Shown here piece after piece: positions 3,729-62,892 of a DNA stretch of 64,000 nucleotides (positions are counted from its first letter, which is position 1; every line of letters starts with the position of its first letter). Both the position numbers and the translations under genes were made by a program. The DNA comes from Clostridia bacterium (GTDB taxonomy: Bacteria; Bacillota; DSM-521; Neomoorellales; SLTJ01): the NCBI GenBank assembly GCA_024653205.1, contig JANLFO010000002.1, forward strand, positions 15,776 through 79,775. Direction: 5' to 3'. Below the pieces are notes generated by a model. That model did not search any database and was not told the DNA's origin. It worked only from the letters and a program-made list of their open reading frames with translations.

Positions 3729-6013
3729 CCCGCCTTCGCCCCCTCAGACCTTGCTTTTCCCAGTGCTCTTAGCACTCTCTCGGGAGTTGCCGGGTATTCC
3801 GTGAGCCAGGTGCCGATGGCGTTGGAAAGGGCCATAAGCACCGCCGCCGGGCCGGGGGAGGTGGCGATTTCGCCCACGCCTACGGCGCGGAAGCGGTGGG
3901 TGGGAAAGGGGGTTTCCAGAATCACGTGCTCCAGGGGCGGCAGGTCCAGGAAAGTCCGCCACTTGTAGTCGGCCAGGTTGGCGTTGAGCACCCAACCGTG
4001 CCCGGGGTCGACAACGGTTTCCTCGAAGAGGGCGCTGTCTATGCCCGCCGAGCCCAGGCAGCCGTTAAGCTGGCCGCGTATTCCCAGGGGGTCGATTACC
4101 TTGCCCACGTCCGTGGCGTTGACCACCCGCAGCAACCTGGTCTCGCCGGTATCGGTGTCCACCTCCACCTCCACGAAGCTCATCAGGCAGTTGGCCAGGG
4201 TGAAATCGGGCTCGAAGCGGCCGAAGCCCACGATGGTCCGGTCCACCCCCATGGCCTTCCAGGACAGCCGCCTCTGGGGATCGGACCTGACGAATACCTC
4301 CCCGTTTTCCGTGTCCAGATCCTCGGGCGCAGCGCCCAGCTTGGGGGCTAGGAGTTCAAAGAGCCTGCTCTTGGCGTCCTCGGCCGCCCGGATCACGGCG
4401 CTGCCGATGGCGTAGGTGCCCCGGGAGCCTACCGAGCCGAACTCGTAGGGGGTGATGAGCGAGTCCGCCGGTGCCATGGTTACCCGCTCCGGAGGCAGCT
4501 GCAGTACCTCGGCCGCCATCTTGATGTAGTTGCTCCAGTTGCCGGTGCCGAACTCGGTCACGCTGCAGAAGATTACCGCCTTGCCCTCCGGGTGCAGCCG
4601 CACCAGGGCCTCGGAGGCATCTTCGCCGATGTCGGCGTTGCCGTGTACTCCCACTCCTACGCCCACCCGCTTGCTTGCGCGGACTTCGGTGGGCTTTAGC
4701 CACCCCTTCCACTTCTGTTTCCAGCCGAAGATCTCGGCTCCCTTTTCCATGGCCGCGGTGTAGTCCACACCCCGGTAGGTGTACCAGTAGCCGTCCCGCC
4801 AGTAGTAGCCGTCGCCGGGCTTGATGTAGTTCTTTTTGAGGAACTCAAAGGGGTCAAGGCCCAGTTCGGCCAGGGCCCGGGAAAGTATGGGCATCAGAGA
4901 GCACTTGAGCTCCTGGCCCCCGAAACCCCTCACCATACCCGAGGCGGCGCGGTTGGTGCACACTACGGTGGGCTTGAGTTTCCAGTTGGGGCAGCGCACC
5001 ATGATCTGCACCTCGCCCAGGCCCACGGCTACCTGAGCCTGGGTGGTCATGGAATAGTAGCCCGTATCCACGTACCACTTCCCGGCCACGGCGGTAACGG
5101 TTCCGTCCCTCTTTAGCCCTACCCTTGCCTGGATGCGGGAGCCGAGTCTCAGGGTAAAGGTGGCCAGGTGCTCCTCCTTGCTCATTACCATTTTCACCGG
5201 ACGGCCGGTAGCCCGGCTGAGCAGGACGGCGTAACCGTACCAGCGCCAGGCCAGGATCTTCGATCCGAAGCTGCCCCCGCAGGGCAGGCCTATGGTCCTG
5301 ACCTCAACCTCCCGGTTCAGGGCATGGTAGAGCATGATCTTGTCCTGATAGGGAAACTGGGTGGACAGCCACAGGGTGGCCCGGTTGGGCTCCTCCCAGA
5401 GCGCGATTGCCCCGGGCGGTTCGGCGGGCAGGGGATTGGGGAACCCCTGGTAGGCGGCGCTGCCTTCCACTACCACATCCGCCTCGGCGAAACCCTTCTC
5501 TACGTCACCGACTACCAACTCCTTCAGGGACTTGGGGCCGAAAAAGGGCATGCCCGGCGTAACCACGTTGCCCGGGAACTCGGAATAGAGCTGGGGCGCA
5601 TCCGGTTTCAGAGCCGCGTCAACGTCCAGCACTGCCGGGAGGACCTCGTACTCCACCTCGATAAGGCCCAGGGCCTCCCGGGCGACCTCTTCACTGGTGG
5701 CGGCCACCAGGGCCACCGCGTCGCCCACGAAGCGCACCTTCTGATCCAGGATGCGGGTGTGGCGCGGCGTGCCGCCTCTCCAGCCGGGAGGAACGTCTTC
5801 GTAGGTAACGACCGCTTTGACTCCTTCCAGTTCGAGGGCCCGGCTCTTGTCGATGCGCTTGATAACCGCATGGGCGTGGGGGCTCGGCAGGACCAGGCCA
5901 TAGAGCATGCCGGGCATTTCCAGGTCGTTGAGGTACCGCACCCTGCCGGTCACCACCTCCACGGCATCGCGCCGCGGTACCGGCCGGCCGACAAACCGGT
6001 AGTTTTCACCCAC
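3725..6013 (-). CDS. Xanthine dehydrogenase/aldehyde oxidoreductase family, molybdopterin-binding large subunit
   Basis: Track ORF is 3725-6088. Start trimmed to the GTG at 6013 (VGENYRFVGRPVPRRDAVEVVTG...), 8 nt after SD GGGAGGTGA. The GTG at 6022 (GTGA overlap with the small-subunit stop) is the alternative. Confidence 0.9.
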   Translation of the reverse strand: MGENYRFVGRPVPRRDAVEVVTGRVRYLNDLEMPGMLYGLVLPSPHAHAVIKRIDKSRALELEGVKAVVTYEDVPPGWRGGTPRHTRILDQKVRFVGDAVALVAATSEEVAREALGLIEVEYEVLPAVLDVDAALKPDAPQLYSEFPGNVVTPGMPFFGPKSLKELVVGDVEKGFAEADVVVEGSAAYQGFPNPLPAEPPGAIALWEEPNRATLWLSTQFPYQDKIMLYHALNREVEVRTIGLPCGGSFGSKILAWRWYGYAVLLSRATGRPVKMVMSKEEHLATFTLRLGSRIQARVGLKRDGTVTAVAGKWYVDTGYYSMTTQAQVAVGLGEVQIMVRCPNWKLKPTVVCTNRAASGMVRGFGGQELKCSLMPILSRALAELGLDPFEFLKKNYIKPGDGYYWRDGYWYTYRGVDYTAAMEKGAEIFGWKQKWKGWLKPTEVRASKRVGVGVGVHGNADIGEDASEALVRLHPEGKAVIFCSVTEFGTGNWSNYIKMAAEVLQLPPERVTMAPADSLITPYEFGSVGSRGTYAIGSAVIRAAEDAKSRLFELLAPKLGAAPEDLDTENGEVFVRSDPQRRLSWKAMGVDRTIVGFGRFEPDFTLANCLMSFVEVEVDTDTGETRLLRVVNATDVGKVIDPLGIRGQLNGCLGSAGIDSALFEETVVDPGHGWVLNANLADYKWRTFLDLPPLEHVILETPFPTHRFRAVGVGEIATSPGPAAVLMALSNAIGTWLTEYPATPERVLRALGKARSEGAKAG

Positions 6014-16297: not shown

Positions 16298-16390
16298 GCC
16301 GGGTTATCCCCGGTTTCCGAATGCCGGGGCGATCTCATCTAGTACATTGGCTCCCGACCAGGCGTATTCACGGGTGCAGCCGGATGCCGG
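16298..16390 (+). repeat. Partial (5'-end) copy of the long-hairpin repeat family
   Basis: GCCGGGTTATCCCCGGTT (16298-16315) is identical to 25897-25914. AGTACATTGGC (16341-16351) and GCCGGATGCC (16379-16388) follow in the same order as in copy A. Confidence 0.45.
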
Positions 16391-25869: not shown

Positions 25870-25896
25870 AGCGCTTTGGTAACCAGGGCTACCTTC

Positions 25897-26130
25897 GCCG
25901 GGTTATCCCCGGTTGCGGGCTGGCAAGCGGTACCGGGTGCTTCTGAGTACATTGGCACCTTGCCGGATGCCCCGGAGGCGGGCCGCAGGCCGTGGACGGC
26001 CGAGGCGGCGGGGCGCCACGGTCGGCGCCTCCGCCGCCCGCCGGAGGGCGAAGCCCAAGCCCTAGTAGGTCGGCAAGATAACAGTGCGAACGGGGAGCAC
26101 CCGGTACCGCCCGTGGGAAAGTGGGGATCC
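25897..26130 (+). repeat. Long-hairpin repeat element, copy A
   Basis: Left-end motif GGTTATCCCC (25901-25910). Perfect 15-bp closing stem 25927-25941 / 26096-26110. 42-nt block 26087-26128 is identical to 60967-61008. Confidence 0.8.
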
Positions 26131-26166
26131 ACCAGGCTGCCTCGCCGAGGGATCCCCACTTTTTCG
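26117..26166. terminator. Bidirectional terminator-like hairpin at the copy A / copy B junction
   Basis: 13-bp perfect stem AAAGTGGGGATCC (26118-26130) / GGATCCCCACTTT (26150-26162), 19-nt loop. An A-run lies 5' and TTTTT lies 3' (26160-26164). Confidence 0.5.
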
Positions 26167-26374
26167 AGGGGAGTGCTGGTTTTGCCCGAGTACCTAAAGC
26201 GTGCCGGGTACCGAACTAGGTGAGAGCGAGCGCGGAGGCCGGTCGGAGGCCAAGGATGGCCGGAGCCGCGCCGGCGCCATGGACGGGTTCTTGCGCGGGA
26301 AGCCGGCCGAAGCGCGAAGGTCGAACCCTAGTTTGGTCGGCTAAGCGACCGGTACGAGGGGCAAACCAGCACTG
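26150..26374 (+). repeat. Long-hairpin repeat element, copy B
   Basis: Arms 26171-26193 and 26352-26374 pair (AGTGCTGGTTT, GCCC, GTAC). The interior aligns block by block with copy C. Confidence 0.75.
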
Positions 26375-26386
26375 CCCCGAACGCCG

Positions 26387-26416
26387 TTGACACCTTTTAG
26401 CAGGGTAGGATATAAT
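26387..26416 (+). promoter_or_regulatory. Consensus sigma-A-type promoter of recA
   Basis: TTGACA (26387-26392), 18-nt spacer, TATAAT (26411-26416). Confidence 0.7.
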
Positions 26417-41878: not shown

Positions 41879-42073
41879 CCGGTGCGGGGCGTCCCGGGTC
41901 GAGGCGAGGAGCCGTCCGGCGGCGGTCGGTGGGCCCGGTTTCTGCAGCGTGATAGCCCGGGCTGCGCTCCGGACCGGACGCAAGCCGGCGGGGTGGCGGG
42001 CGCACGGGACCGCAGCGCCGCCACCCGGCCCTCTGACGAATCCCCCCTGGGGATAACTCAGCCCGGCCCTCGG

Positions 42074-42102
42074 TTGAAGCCCACGGGAGGTCATGGTAGA
42101 AT
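42074..42102 (+). promoter_or_regulatory. Sigma-A-type promoter of miaB
   Basis: TTGAAG (42074-42079), 17-nt spacer, TAGAAT (42097-42102). Confidence 0.5.
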
Positions 42103-42150: not shown

Positions 42151-43470
42151 TTGACCGGAGCGAAGAAGTATCTCACCTTTACCTACGGCTGTCAGATGAA
42201 CGAACACGACACCGAGGTTATGGCCGGGCTGCTGGAAGAGGCGGGATACCGGCCCGCCTTGGGTCCGGAAGAAGCGGACCTGATTCTTATCAACACCTGC
42301 TCGGTACGGGAGAAGGCGGAGAACAAAGTCTTCGGCCAGTTAGGCCAACTCTCCGCCTGGAAGCGGCGGCGGCCGGGCCTGATCATCGGCGTCGCGGGGT
42401 GCATGGCCCAGCGATTGGGAGAAACGCTTCGCCGCAAGGCCCCGCAGGTGGACTTCGTGGTGGGCCCCGGCGATCTGCACCGGCTGCCGGAACTGGTCCG
42501 CCGGGTGGAGGAGGAGCGGCAATTCGTGCTGGCCACCGGTTGGCCGGGAGGCGAACCGGTGGAAAACCTGCCCGTGAGGCGGGCGGATCGCATCCGGGCC
42601 TATGTTAACATCAGCTTCGGCTGCAACAACTTCTGCAGCTTCTGCATAGTGCCCTATCTTCGGGGGCCGGAGCGCAGCCGGCGGGCGGAACACATCCTGG
42701 CCGAAGTGGAGGCCCTGGCCCGGGAAGGCTACCGCGAGGTAATGCTGTTAGGTCAGAACGTGAACACCTACGGGCGCGACCTGCCGGGCGGGGTGAGCTT
42801 CGGCGGTCTGCTACAGCAGGTGGACGCGGTTGAGGGGCTGGCCCGCATCCGCTACACCACCTCCCACCCGCGCGATTTCGGCCCCGAACTGGTAGAGGTG
42901 GTGGCCTCCGCCCGGAAGGTCTGCGAGCACTTCCATCTTCCCGCCCAGGCCGGATCGGACCGCGTCCTGGAACGCATGCGCCGGGGATATACCCGCGAGC
43001 ACTATTTGCGCCTGACCGAAATCATCCGGCGCCGCCTTCCCCATGCCAGCATTACTACCGACCTAATCGTGGGCTTTCCCGGAGAAACCGAGGAGGATTT
43101 TGAAGCCACCCTGGACCTGGTGGAGAGGGTGCGCTTCGATGCCGCCTTTACCTTCATGTATTCTCCCCGGCCGGGCACGGCGGCGGCGGCGTTTCCGGAC
43201 CAGGTGCCGCCGGAAGTCAGGCGGGAAAGGCTCGTGCGCCTCAACCGCCTGCAGAACCGGCTGACGCGGGAAAGCAACGAAAGGCTGGCAGGCGAGACCG
43301 TAGAGGTGCTGGTGGAAGGACCGAGCAAGACAAATCCCGAGCGGCTGTCCGGGCGTACCCGCACCAACAAGATCGTGGTGTTCTCCGGGCCGCCCGAACT
43401 GATAGGGCAGCTGGTGAACGTGCGCATAACCGAGGCCCAGACCTTCAACCTCTTCGGCGAACTGGTCTAG
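42151..43470 (+). CDS. miaB: tRNA-i6A37 methylthiotransferase
   Basis: YLTFTYGCQMNEHDTE, radical SAM CNNFCSFC, and a TRAM C-terminus. Confidence 0.92.
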   Translation: MTGAKKYLTFTYGCQMNEHDTEVMAGLLEEAGYRPALGPEEADLILINTCSVREKAENKVFGQLGQLSAWKRRRPGLIIGVAGCMAQRLGETLRRKAPQVDFVVGPGDLHRLPELVRRVEEERQFVLATGWPGGEPVENLPVRRADRIRAYVNISFGCNNFCSFCIVPYLRGPERSRRAEHILAEVEALAREGYREVMLLGQNVNTYGRDLPGGVSFGGLLQQVDAVEGLARIRYTTSHPRDFGPELVEVVASARKVCEHFHLPAQAGSDRVLERMRRGYTREHYLRLTEIIRRRLPHASITTDLIVGFPGETEEDFEATLDLVERVRFDAAFTFMYSPRPGTAAAAFPDQVPPEVRRERLVRLNRLQNRLTRESNERLAGETVEVLVEGPSKTNPERLSGRTRTNKIVVFSGPPELIGQLVNVRITEAQTFNLFGELV

Positions 43471-60614: not shown

Positions 60615-60691
<77 letters not shown>

Positions 60692-60700
60692 ACCGCGTCT

Positions 60701-60729
60701 ATTGTACCCTATTGATCTCGCCTCGTCAA
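60701..60729 (-). promoter_or_regulatory. Sigma-A-type promoter of tRNA-Pro
   Basis: On the minus strand: TTGACG (complement of 60724-60729), 17-nt spacer, TACAAT (complement of 60701-60706). Lies 9 nt upstream of the mature 5' end. Confidence 0.6.
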
Positions 60730-60744
60730 GCGCCGGTCAGCCTG

Positions 60745-61014
60745 ACGTATCCCCACTTTCGAGTTAACTTGAGTTGACTGGCGGTACCGGGTGCTCGCCT
60801 GAGTACATTGGCAACTCGCCGGGAACCGAACTTGGCGAGGACGAGCGCGGAGGCGGGCCGGAGGCCACGGACGGCCGAAGCCGAGGAGCGCCATGGACGG
60901 CGCTTCCGAGGGGAGCCCGCCGTAGCGCGAAGGCTGAGCCCTAGTTTGGTCGGCGAGGTGACAGTACGAACGGGGAGCACCCGGTACCGCCCGTGGGAAA
61001 GTGGGGATAACTCA
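60745..61014 (+). mobile_element. Long-hairpin repeat element, copy C, with TIRs and a flanking direct repeat (MITE-like, no ORF)
   Basis: TIR TATCCCCACTTTC (60748-60760) / GAAAGTGGGGATA (60997-61009). 17-bp perfect inner stem 60780-60796 / 60975-60991. Flanked by GCCGGTCAGCCTG at 60732-60744 and 61015-61027. Confidence 0.7.
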
Positions 61015-61027
61015 GCCGGTCAGCCTG

Positions 61028-61230
61028 GGTGGTCCCCGGTTTCGGGCCGACAAGCGGTGCGGAGGAGCTTCCCTGAGTACGTTGGCACCTTGCCAGGTGC
61101 CGAACTTGGCGAGAAGTGGCTATGGACGGGTTCTTCATCGGGGAGTCTGTCGGAACCCGCAGTTCAACTGCAGTACGGTCGGCGACGGACGCGAGCGGTA
61201 GCAGGTGCAGGCGGGCCATTGCGGGAAGGT
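61028..61230 (+). repeat. Long-hairpin repeat element, copy D (degenerate)
   Basis: TCCCCGGTTTCGGG (61033-61046) is a left-end-like motif. CTGAGTACGTTGGCACC (61073-61089), GAACTTGGCGAG and ATGGACGGGTTCTT are shared with copies B and C. The middle of the core is deleted. Confidence 0.55.
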
Positions 61231-61278
61231 AGATGGCTCGGGCGGCAAGGGTTATCAGGGGAGAAAGGGTGAATCCAA

Positions 61279-62892
61279 ATGGCAACACTGAGCTTCTTCG
61301 GCGCGGCCAGGACGGTCACCGGAGCCTGTTTCTTGCTGGAGACGCGCACCAGCAAAGTACTGCTAGACTGCGGTCTGTTTCAGGGGCCCAGGGCAGTAAG
61401 GGAGCGCAACTATCAGCCGTTTCCGTTCAACCCCGCCTCGATCGATTTCCTGCTTCTCACTCACGCCCACATCGACCACAGCGGCCTCATTCCCAAGCTC
61501 TACCGTCACGGCTTCAGGGGAAAAATCCTCGCCACCGCACCCACCTGTGATCTCTGTGAGGCGCTGCTGCCGGACAGCGCCCACGTCCAGGAAATGGAGG
61601 TGGAACGCAAGAACCGGAAGCTGCAGCGGGCGGGCCGCCCCTTAATTCAGGCCATTTACACCTCCGAGGAGGCCTATCACTGTCTGCGTCTCTTCCAGCC
61701 CGTAGAATACCGGCGGGTACTCGGCCTCACTCCGGAAGTAAAGGCCTGCTTCTACGAAGCCGGCCACATCCTGGGTTCTGCCAGCATCAAGCTTTGGGTA
61801 AGGGACGGGGACGAAGAGGCTACGCTTTTGTTTTCCGGGGATCTGGGGCGGGTGGACCAGCCGCTGGTAAACGATCCCCACCCCCCGGAGGGTGCGGATT
61901 TCGTGATAATGGAATCGACCTACGGCAACCGGCTGCACCCTCCGGGCGGCGACGGCCTGGGGCGCCTGGCGCAGATTATTGCCGAGACCCACCGTCGAGG
62001 CGGAAACGTGCTCATCCCCGCTTTCGCCGTCGAGCGCACGCAGGACGTGCTTTATGCTCTGGGCCGGCTTCTGGATTCGGGGGCTTTGGACCCGGGGCGG
62101 GTATACCTGGACAGCCCTCTGGCGGTGGCAGCTACGGAGATTTTCTGCCGCTACCTTGCCCAGCTGGATGAGGAAACCCAGATCATGGCCGTGGAACGGG
62201 GAGGAACCTGTCCCTTCCTGCTGCCGGGAATGAAGCTGTGCCGTACCTCCGATGAATCCCGGGCCATCAACCAGGTTTCCCAAGGAGCGGTCATCATCGC
62301 CGCCAGCGGCATGTGCGACGCCGGCCGGATAAAGCATCACCTGAAACATAATCTCTGGCGGCCGGAATGCACCGTGGTCCTGGTCGGCTATCAGGCGGAG
62401 GGAACCCTCGGCCGGCGACTGGCAGAAGGGGAGAAGGAGGTAACCATTCACGGAGAGCCGGTGGCGGTGCGGGCGCGCATTGAGAAGCTGGATGATTTTT
62501 CCGCCCACGCCGATCAGAACGGATTGGTTTCCTGGGTGGCCGGCCAGCGCCGGCGTCCCCGTTTGGTCTTTCTGACCCACGGAGAAGAGGAGGCCCTGAA
62601 CACCCTGGCGGCAAGGCTGGAGGAGGAACTGGGGCTTTCGACGGCCATACCCGACTGGAAAGAGCAGGTGCAACTGTCCCCGGAGGACGCCGGCGGGGCG
62701 AGGGAAACGGAAGTGATGGCCGCAGGAGAGCAGCCGGCCGAAGTTGGCTCCAACCTTCAGGAATTCCAGGCAGAACTCAATCGCTTTAAAGGCGCCCTTG
62801 AACGGTGGCAGCGGGAGGAAGTGCGGGCCGGACGCTACCAGGCCGCCCTGGCCCGGCTCCGGAGGTGGCAGGACGAGCTACGGAATGCATAG
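61279..62892 (+). CDS. MBL-fold beta-CASP family hydrolase (CPSF73/Ysh1-like RNA-metabolising nuclease)
   Basis: FLLETRTSKVLLDCG...LLLTHAHIDHSG...ESTYGNR...FSAHAD, with a roughly 80-aa coiled-coil-like C-terminal tail. Confidence 0.85.
   Translation: MATLSFFGAARTVTGACFLLETRTSKVLLDCGLFQGPRAVRERNYQPFPFNPASIDFLLLTHAHIDHSGLIPKLYRHGFRGKILATAPTCDLCEALLPDSAHVQEMEVERKNRKLQRAGRPLIQAIYTSEEAYHCLRLFQPVEYRRVLGLTPEVKACFYEAGHILGSASIKLWVRDGDEEATLLFSGDLGRVDQPLVNDPHPPEGADFVIMESTYGNRLHPPGGDGLGRLAQIIAETHRRGGNVLIPAFAVERTQDVLYALGRLLDSGALDPGRVYLDSPLAVAATEIFCRYLAQLDEETQIMAVERGGTCPFLLPGMKLCRTSDESRAINQVSQGAVIIAASGMCDAGRIKHHLKHNLWRPECTVVLVGYQAEGTLGRRLAEGEKEVTIHGEPVAVRARIEKLDDFSAHADQNGLVSWVAGQRRRPRLVFLTHGEEEALNTLAARLEEELGLSTAIPDWKEQVQLSPEDAGGARETEVMAAGEQPAEVGSNLQEFQAELNRFKGALERWQREEVRAGRYQAALARLRRWQDELRNA

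Follow-up and report, generated by a model that had tools for sequence, protein, structure and literature searches.

Between a tRNA-Pro gene and a gene for a beta-CASP metallo-beta-lactamase-fold protein, a Clostridia bacterium contig (64,000 nucleotides of which were analysed, hereafter the window) carries a non-coding unit with inverted ends, bracketed by a direct repeat and followed by an older unit of the same kind. The locus raises the question of whether the first of these units, copy C, arrived by transposition, and of what placed it so precisely beside a promoter. We find that copy C is very probably a recently inserted, non-autonomous MITE, non-coding and belonging to a multi-copy family of uncultured Moorellales (Bacillota). 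Many copies of this family keep a fixed distance to a -35-like motif, and the copies share a paired interior that covaries with a bias to one strand.

Anatomy of copy C at the tRNA-Pro promoter

Both repeats that first drew attention to copy C exist in the sequence. The inverted 13-mer TATCCCCACTTTC at 60748-60760 (+) has its exact reverse complement at 60997-61009, the direct 13-mer GCCGGTCAGCCTG lies at 60732-60744 and 61015-61027, and in each case these are the sole matches in the window without a mismatch. With up to two mismatches, TATCCCCACTTTC has 8 matches in the window where 1.0 is expected, a number that none of 100 shuffles reached. The first-pass annotation was right about the inverted repeats but set their limits too short, as they run 6 nt further outward on each side, to CTG...CAG; the ends of copy C given by the repeat finder are 19 nt long, imperfect and 89% complementary. 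Copy C and L006, a copy at an unrelated locus that is 99.3% identical to it, match over precisely 60742-61015, and the flanks diverge past this span. The element is therefore 274 bp long, CTGACGTATCCCC...GGGGATAACTCAG, and not 270 bp as proposed earlier, whereas the accompanying claim that the unit holds no credible ORF still stands. No ORF is conserved, the indels between copies are not multiples of 3, and such ORFs as occur are short, overlapping and typical of GC-rich DNA, indicating that coding capacity is absent.

The direct repeat had been taken for a 13-bp duplication, but the true target duplication is its central 9 bp, CCGGTCAGC. The 13-mer is composed of a G, the 9-bp duplication and CTG. 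Copy C supplies the CTG of the left-hand 13-mer with its first three bases, and the older copy D does so for the right-hand 13-mer, which overlaps the start of D; the G of the right-hand 13-mer is the last base of copy C. Since the degenerate copy D begins right after, the repeat finder gives the direct repeat a length of 30 nt, with 77% identity.

The presence of a tRNA-Pro(GGG) gene and its promoter beside copy C was confirmed. Copy C adjoins this promoter as had been noted, but the spacing between the repeat and the -35 hexamer becomes 3 nt (60730-60732) instead of 2 nt once the duplication is 9 bp long. On the other side, the first of the internal hairpins is missing from copy D. Toward the beta-CASP gene (ATG at 61279), the 3' tip of copy D has decayed and merges with the RBS region, such that in window 61255-61281 GGGTTATCAGGGGA runs directly into the RBS-like GAGAAAGGGTGA. 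No sigma-70-like promoter was detected on the + strand between the tRNA-Pro promoter and the beta-CASP ATG, and the transcript of the beta-CASP gene probably starts in or upstream of copies C and D. For the beta-CASP/MBL-fold protein itself (61279-62892), the best NCBIfam models are Cas14 (type VII CRISPR) and archaeal aCPSF1, both far below cut-off. Its orthologues are widespread in Moorellales and Desulfotomaculia, and a glycosyltransferase gene lies downstream.

Table 1. Units of the element family in the window, the neighbouring promoters and tRNA gene, and flanking duplications of copies at other loci
Feature	Position	Strand	Basis or remark
Copy A, 238 bp	25898..26135	+	BLAST and nhmmer; tips 1-2 mismatches from consensus
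9-nt spacer GCTGCCTCG between A and B	26136..26144	.	left flank of A (25889-25897) is CTACCTTCG
Copy B, divergent subfamily	26145..26378	+	family alignment, nhmmer
recA promoter, TTGACA-18-TATAAT	26387..26416	+	conserved in relative without A and B
Left 9-bp duplication of mini-element, CCCGGCCCT	42024..42032	.	9/9
Mini-element, 29 bp	42033..42061	+	two 13-nt tips joined by CCT: CTGACGAATCCCC-CCT-GGGGATAACTCAG
Right 9-bp duplication of mini-element, CCCGGCCCT	42062..42070	.	followed by CGG, then promoter
tRNA-Pro (anticodon GGG)	60615..60691	-	tRNA call, Rfam scan
tRNA-Pro(GGG) promoter, TTGACG-17-TACAAT	60701..60729	-	-35 hexamer 60724-60729
Left 9-bp target-site duplication, CCGGTCAGC	60733..60741	.	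9/9 identity with 61016-61024
MITE copy C, non-coding (very probable)	60742..61015, 274 bp	+	ends from 99.3% identical copy L006 and other copies; nhmmer score 271.7
5' terminal inverted repeat, CTGACGTATCCCCACTTTC	60742..60760	+	repeat finder; tip CTGA-N3-ATCCCC matches IS10 end
3' terminal inverted repeat, GAAAGTGGGGATAACTCAG	60997..61015	+	repeat finder and IS10 end comparison
Right 9-bp target-site duplication, CCGGTCAGC	61016..61024	.	9/9 identity with 60733-60741
Copy D, older and degenerate	61025..61264	+	BLAST and family alignment; nhmmer score 89.9
Copy L006, 9-bp duplication CGGAGCCTG			9/9, abuts CTG...CAG ends
Copy L021, 9-bp duplication GGCTTGGCG			9/9, abuts CTG...CAG ends
Copy L024, 9-bp duplication AGGCAAGGG			9/9, abuts CTG...CAG ends
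Copy L033, 9-bp duplication GGATCAGTG			9/9, abuts CTG...CAG ends

A dispersed family with variable duplications

The window contains four units in two tandem pairs, A-B and C-D, found by BLAST and profile search, plus a mini-element. Copies elsewhere were gathered with one conserved internal sequence pattern, and about 30 retrieved overall are not a complete census. At least 20 of them come from a single MAG, 'Moorellales bacterium Kamch4316-2DMB-05 bin25' (hereafter the Kamchatka MAG), which contributed 17 loci. Among metagenomes the pattern gave 14 hits, and 7 contigs hold true copies; the other 7 hits (L004, L009-L011, L013-L015) have no similarity to the element and are treated as chance matches.

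If the 13-mer were a constant internal part of the element, one of the doubts attached to it originally, every copy would be flanked by the same repeat. This is not so. Six copies including copy C have perfect 9-bp duplications, all of them different (Table 1), and L017, L027 and L034 have near-perfect ones. Two full-length copies, L016 (568-842) and L030 (6240-6503), have no matching duplication, which fits recombination between copies that were each inserted at a different promoter. The first-pass annotation had named as contrary to insertion the finding that other full-length copies lack any duplication, that the 13-mer always belongs to the repeat, or that relatives have both 13-mers with nothing between them; none of these was observed, and other copies do carry duplications.

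The family is also polymorphic in its presence. Between the Kamchatka MAG and the window, whose RecA proteins are 95% and beta-CASP proteins 76% identical, three orthologous spacers differ in occupancy. The thpR-recA spacer is 79 bp long and empty in the Kamchatka MAG, with the same recA promoter, as compared with 564 bp including A and B in the window. Upstream of thpR the situation is reversed, as a full copy flanked by a perfect duplication is present in the Kamchatka MAG and the window has an 84-bp spacer without an element. The spacer from the aspartate kinase gene to the beta-CASP gene, with the tRNA-Pro gene inside, is 690 bp long in the window, where it holds C and D, and 241 bp long in the Kamchatka MAG, where it holds one 5'-truncated copy. 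For copy C, an exact empty site such as had been suggested as a check was not recovered among the same-species strains and related species examined. The same-species strains all carry copy C or have contigs that break inside it, and the nearest other species (76% identity) has another copy in the register of copy C. A 73% relative has a different synteny here, and in a 70% relative the contigs start just upstream of the gene.

These breaks form a pattern of their own. Dispersed repeats usually break assemblies at their copies. In the MAG that matches the window (GCA_029907445.1) the contig begins inside copy C, as does a contig of another strain, and in the 70%-identity relative the contigs start a short way before the orthologous gene, within sequence that has an AYGGAY-like motif (breaks inside copy C or upstream of the relative's gene: L002 1-76, L041 1-92, L044 1-56). 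Contigs end inside other copies in L005, L007, L008 and L029. Because contigs repeatedly break inside copies, the element is a cause of assembly breaks in this lineage.

At the thpR-recA locus, the 9-nt spacer between copies A and B may be a decayed right-hand duplication of copy A, with GCTGCCTCG and the left flank CTACCTTCG identical at 4 of 9 positions in register and at about 7 of 8 when one indel is allowed. Copy B has no 3' tip and runs up to just before the recA promoter; in its outer stem the sequence differs but the pairing is the same. The 3' tip of copy A and the 5' tip of copy B together resemble a terminator, with a hairpin followed by TTTTT (GGGGATCC...GGATCCCCACTTTTT, window 25889-26163).

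The mini-element retains the tips and little else, and still lies between perfect duplications. The promoter of the gene at 42151-43470 is TTGAAG-17-TAGAAT (42074-42102), 3 nt from the mini-element's duplication. Two further places in the window have a tip-like appearance: 16299-16352 (+), with CCGGGTTATCCCCGGTTTC and the core motif TAGTACATTGGC, and about 53521-53440 (-), with CTGAGGTTATCCCCGGTTTC, each upstream of a gene. We do not claim these candidate relics (E, about 16299, and F, about 53521), as the likeness was seen by eye and the family profile (nhmmer) gave no detection.

Taken together, the units are short (below about 600 bp), their inverted ends are conserved across copies, their duplication is fixed in length and variable in sequence, and they are multi-copy with insertion polymorphism between relatives, as is characteristic of MITEs. 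The original proposal, that inverted ends plus a flanking duplication mark a non-autonomous, MITE-like element, is borne out by these variable perfect duplications, the multi-copy family and the differences in occupancy.

The ends also point to an origin. The tips of the MITE read CTGACGTATCCCC and CTGAGTTATCCCC, the ends of IS10 on plasmid R100 read CTGATGAATCCCC and CTGAGAGATCCCC, and all share the pattern CTGA-N3-ATCCCC, with ATCCCC at positions 8-13. The IS10 outside end has a full-length match in 1,845 plasmids, and on R100 it adjoins a gene annotated as 'IS4-like element ISVsa5 family transposase'. The target duplication of IS10 is 9 bp. Given the tip pattern and the 9-bp duplication, the copy C family would derive from an IS of the IS10 group, IS4 family, and the mobilising transposase would presumably be an IS10-group DDE enzyme of that family. 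A search for such a gene, as had been recommended, found neither a cognate transposase gene nor a full-length IS with these ends in the window, the 43 loci, plasmids or viral contigs; IS copies are usually lost from MAG assemblies. A tip-pair scan of the retrieved DNA for inverted tips 20-3000 bp apart returned MITEs only; tblastn of the IS10 transposase against all retrieved loci, blastn of copy C against plasmids and a tip-pattern scan of viral contigs were each negative.

The TTGAC register

The 3-nt spacing between the tRNA-Pro -35 hexamer and the duplication of copy C recurs across the family. At offset 12, which corresponds to the 9-bp duplication plus 3 nt, TTGAC is present at 9 of 44 element ends, and at every other offset it is present at no more than 1; the shorter TTG stands at offset 12 at 14 of 44 ends. 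Counted by copy, a -35-like TTGAC lies exactly 3 nt past the duplication in about 16 of 27 copies. All six copies with perfect duplications keep the register on one side, the hexamer of the mini-element reading TTGAAG. L032 is a further case that the tip regex missed, and the L036 copy (3889-3905) also conforms. With TTGAC occurring in the window at a frequency of 5e-4 per position and strand, the register has P ~2e-21, and at an assumed 1% per position P = 5e-10. The target consensus is N9-SSS-TTGAC(R), with nearly only G or C in the 3-nt linker, and the motif is usually a -35 hexamer that reads away from the element. A recognisable -10 box follows 17-18 nt past the motif in about ten cases, including the tRNA-Pro and gene 42151 promoters. 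The motif is faced by the 3' end of the element in about 10 cases and by the 5' end in 5, and in about 40% of copies neither side has TTG at offset 12.

The arrangement can be seen in window 60724-60741, L006 689-706, L021, L024, L026, L029, L032, L033 and L036 3889-3905. L016 has a TTGAC/TTGAT promoter in the correct register on both sides. A literature search, which was non-exhaustive, found nothing on this MITE family or on an insertion rule in register with a -35 hexamer.

The same register explains the tandem at the tRNA-Pro locus. In the Kamchatka MAG a different copy sits in the same register at the same tRNA-Pro promoter (CGTCAA-GCG-N9-CTGACG), and in the window copy D abuts the same 9-mer that copy C duplicated. 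Repeated homing to one promoter would thus account for the C-D tandem and for the impression of a 13-bp repeat. The A-B tandem falls outside this account because no TTGAC faces copy A.

From these observations we infer target selection, as opposed to selective retention. It is conceivable, though unlikely, that the MITE is real and that the register arose from selection after insertion or from bias in the collection of copies, with no choice by the transposase. Insertions in genes would be purged, leaving intergenic survivors in regions where most TTGAC motifs are -35 boxes; the motif is missing from about 40% of copies; and IS10-type enzymes are usually described as reading a symmetric 9-bp core. 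Selection for intergenic positions, however, cannot set a register to the single base, as seen in the 9 occurrences at offset 12 against at most 1 elsewhere, and P stays at or below 5e-10 even with a generous background rate. All six of the youngest copies obey the register. In L024, moreover, only 5 nt separate the TTGACA from the start codon of thpR, so that it is not a plausible -35 hexamer, which favours recognition of the sequence itself over promoter function. This case favours such recognition together with purifying selection, of which promoter-adjacent copies would be the main survivors.

The internal rod, a proposed insertion route and known systems

Between their tips the copies share a paired interior. 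In an alignment of 23 copies this rod comprises 65 pairs, with 96.8% of cells paired, and compensatory changes affect 20 pairs, as against 6.2 ± 1.5 in shuffles and 4-9 with slid partners. In 23 of 23 copies it is the + strand that folds more stably, with a mean advantage of 16.5 kcal/mol, and G:U outnumbers A:C by 64 to 3, or by 15 to 3 on pairs predicted from both strands. Folding z-scores of the units range from -3.7 to -6.8. The downstream gene is on the strand of the element in 21 of 27 cases, a tentative figure from a crude codon-usage gene call. Paired changes could also be produced by templated 'quasipalindrome correction' in the absence of selection. The strand bias of the covariation suggests that a + strand transcript, or one of the two DNA strands, is under constraint, and the element may act as RNA. 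Through RNase III or RNase E, Correia and ERIC elements affect transcripts (review PMC10969869).

Two neighbouring internal hairpins (window 60855-60918, with equivalents in all copies) have the AYGGAY-like loops ACGGAC and AUGGAC, whose columns rank with the best conserved ones in the family alignment. The Rfam family TwoAYGGAY (RF01731) scores 17.9 bits here over about 64 nt (E = 9.9), as compared with a gathering threshold of 43. We rejected this identity, as the match is far below threshold in copy C and copies A and B have none; the likeness may be a coincidence. A scan of the whole window at Rfam gathering thresholds returned tRNA only, and permissive scans of both loci gave nothing credible.

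The rod invites a reading in which nothing moved: the units would be immobile structured non-coding or cis-regulatory RNAs, with the inverted repeats as a closing helix and the direct repeat as a local tandem duplication. Each unit does form a long rod with z-scores of -3.7 to -6.8 and strong covariation biased to one strand, tandem pairs lie upstream of recA and of the beta-CASP gene, and the direct repeat can be extended to 30 nt (77% identity). On account of this extension, tandem duplication was the first source of the direct repeat to be considered, and it was dropped as other copies carry different 9-bp duplications. An immobile RNA is very improbable given that unrelated loci show different perfect 9-bp duplications, that orthologous spacers are empty in a relative, that a 29-bp derivative consisting of tips only still has a perfect duplication, that the tips match a known transposon end, and that no Rfam family is reached at threshold. 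A structured transcript is compatible with mobility, and all that is left of the RNA view is a secondary property of the element. Integration of the att type by a tyrosine or serine recombinase, for which a perfect 13-bp direct repeat beside a tRNA gene, serving as core site, would be the classic context, has a negligible chance of being correct: with a duplication of 9 bp both this alternative and the concern about an over-long duplication fall away, the repeat differs at every copy, the neighbouring genes include no recombinase, the 274-bp element has IS-type inverted tips, and the insertion lies upstream of the tRNA promoter, the tRNA gene itself not being the target.

We give about an even chance to a joint reading in which the copy C family is a promoter-homing transposon whose transposase reads TTGAC, in practice the -35 hexamer of housekeeping promoters, at 3 bp from the cut, or else reads the RNA polymerase or sigma factor bound there, and in which these sites are a safe haven, tandems arise by re-homing and the interior is a separately selected, strand-specific RNA module with AYGGAY-like loops. 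In the explanation that we prefer overall, an IS10-group DDE transposase would act in trans, bind the CTGA-N3-ATCCCC tips and excise copy C, which would be joined to a 9-bp staggered cut whose repair would create the CCGGTCAGC duplication. The cut would be placed so that TTGAC, usually a sigma-70-type -35 hexamer, falls 3 nt past it, with the element ending about 12 bp upstream of the core promoter and the promoter left intact. At the tRNA-Pro promoter the older copy D would have used the same register before copy C homed to it, and re-use of the same 9-bp target would have put copy C between the promoter and D; the empty tRNA-Pro site would read a single CCGGTCAGC and then directly CTGGGTGGTCCCC. 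The interior of about 230 bp is a conserved rod-like hairpin, more stable as the + strand and probably kept through co-transcription of the element with its neighbours.

A new MITE family alone is a matter of routine annotation, which also accounts for the contig breaks in the MAGs of this lineage. If the register reflects target choice, it would constitute a simple, sequence-defined route by which a DDE transposon reaches harmless promoter-side sites, with a bearing on the survival of transposons in compact genomes and on the rewiring of sequence upstream of promoters, and it could guide insertion tools with predictable landing sites. In the window, mobile DNA abuts about position -47 of the tRNA-Pro, recA, beta-CASP and 42151 promoters. 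The conserved rod suggests that the element is also under selection as a transcript, as has been argued for Correia and ERIC elements.

Several known systems resemble parts of this family. IS10/Tn10 shares the CTGA-N3-ATCCCC tips and the 9-bp duplication, but its hosts are Enterobacteria, whereas the family described here belongs to thermophile-associated Moorellales and no transposase partner was found for it in the DNA searched. The target hotspot consensus of IS10 is NGCTNAGCN. Position counts over the 9-mers of 16 targets with TTG at offset 12 do not contain this consensus; in place of such a core, the conserved sequence is SSS-TTGAC, outside the duplication and on one side. IS-derived MITEs are likewise short, non-coding, multi-copy and bounded by inverted repeats, but their interior is left over from an IS, in contrast to the conserved, covarying rod of the copy C family. 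Correia (CREE, Neisseria), ERIC and REP/BIME elements are comparable as small palindromic intergenic repeats that form long hairpins, lie predominantly just upstream of genes and are often co-transcribed with them. Correia elements differ in duplicating TA and carrying their own promoters; REP elements lack a duplication, and another type of enzyme moves them. To our knowledge, no Correia, ERIC or REP/BIME element has been described in a fixed single-base register to a host -35 hexamer. TwoAYGGAY RNA (RF01731) is alike in its two adjacent hairpins with AYGGAY-like loops, a resemblance that stays below threshold. In being inserted at a defined position beside, and not within, functional genes or promoters, with re-use possible, the family resembles Tn7 (attTn7), Ty3/Ty1 (RNA polymerase III genes) and Tf1 (promoters). 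Those elements employ dedicated target-selector proteins or host transcription factors, whereas the cue here is apparently a 5-bp motif 3 bp from the cut. As a kind of element, this new family of IS10-like MITEs from uncultured Moorellales is ordinary; its single-base register to TTGAC and its strand-biased, covarying core are unusual.
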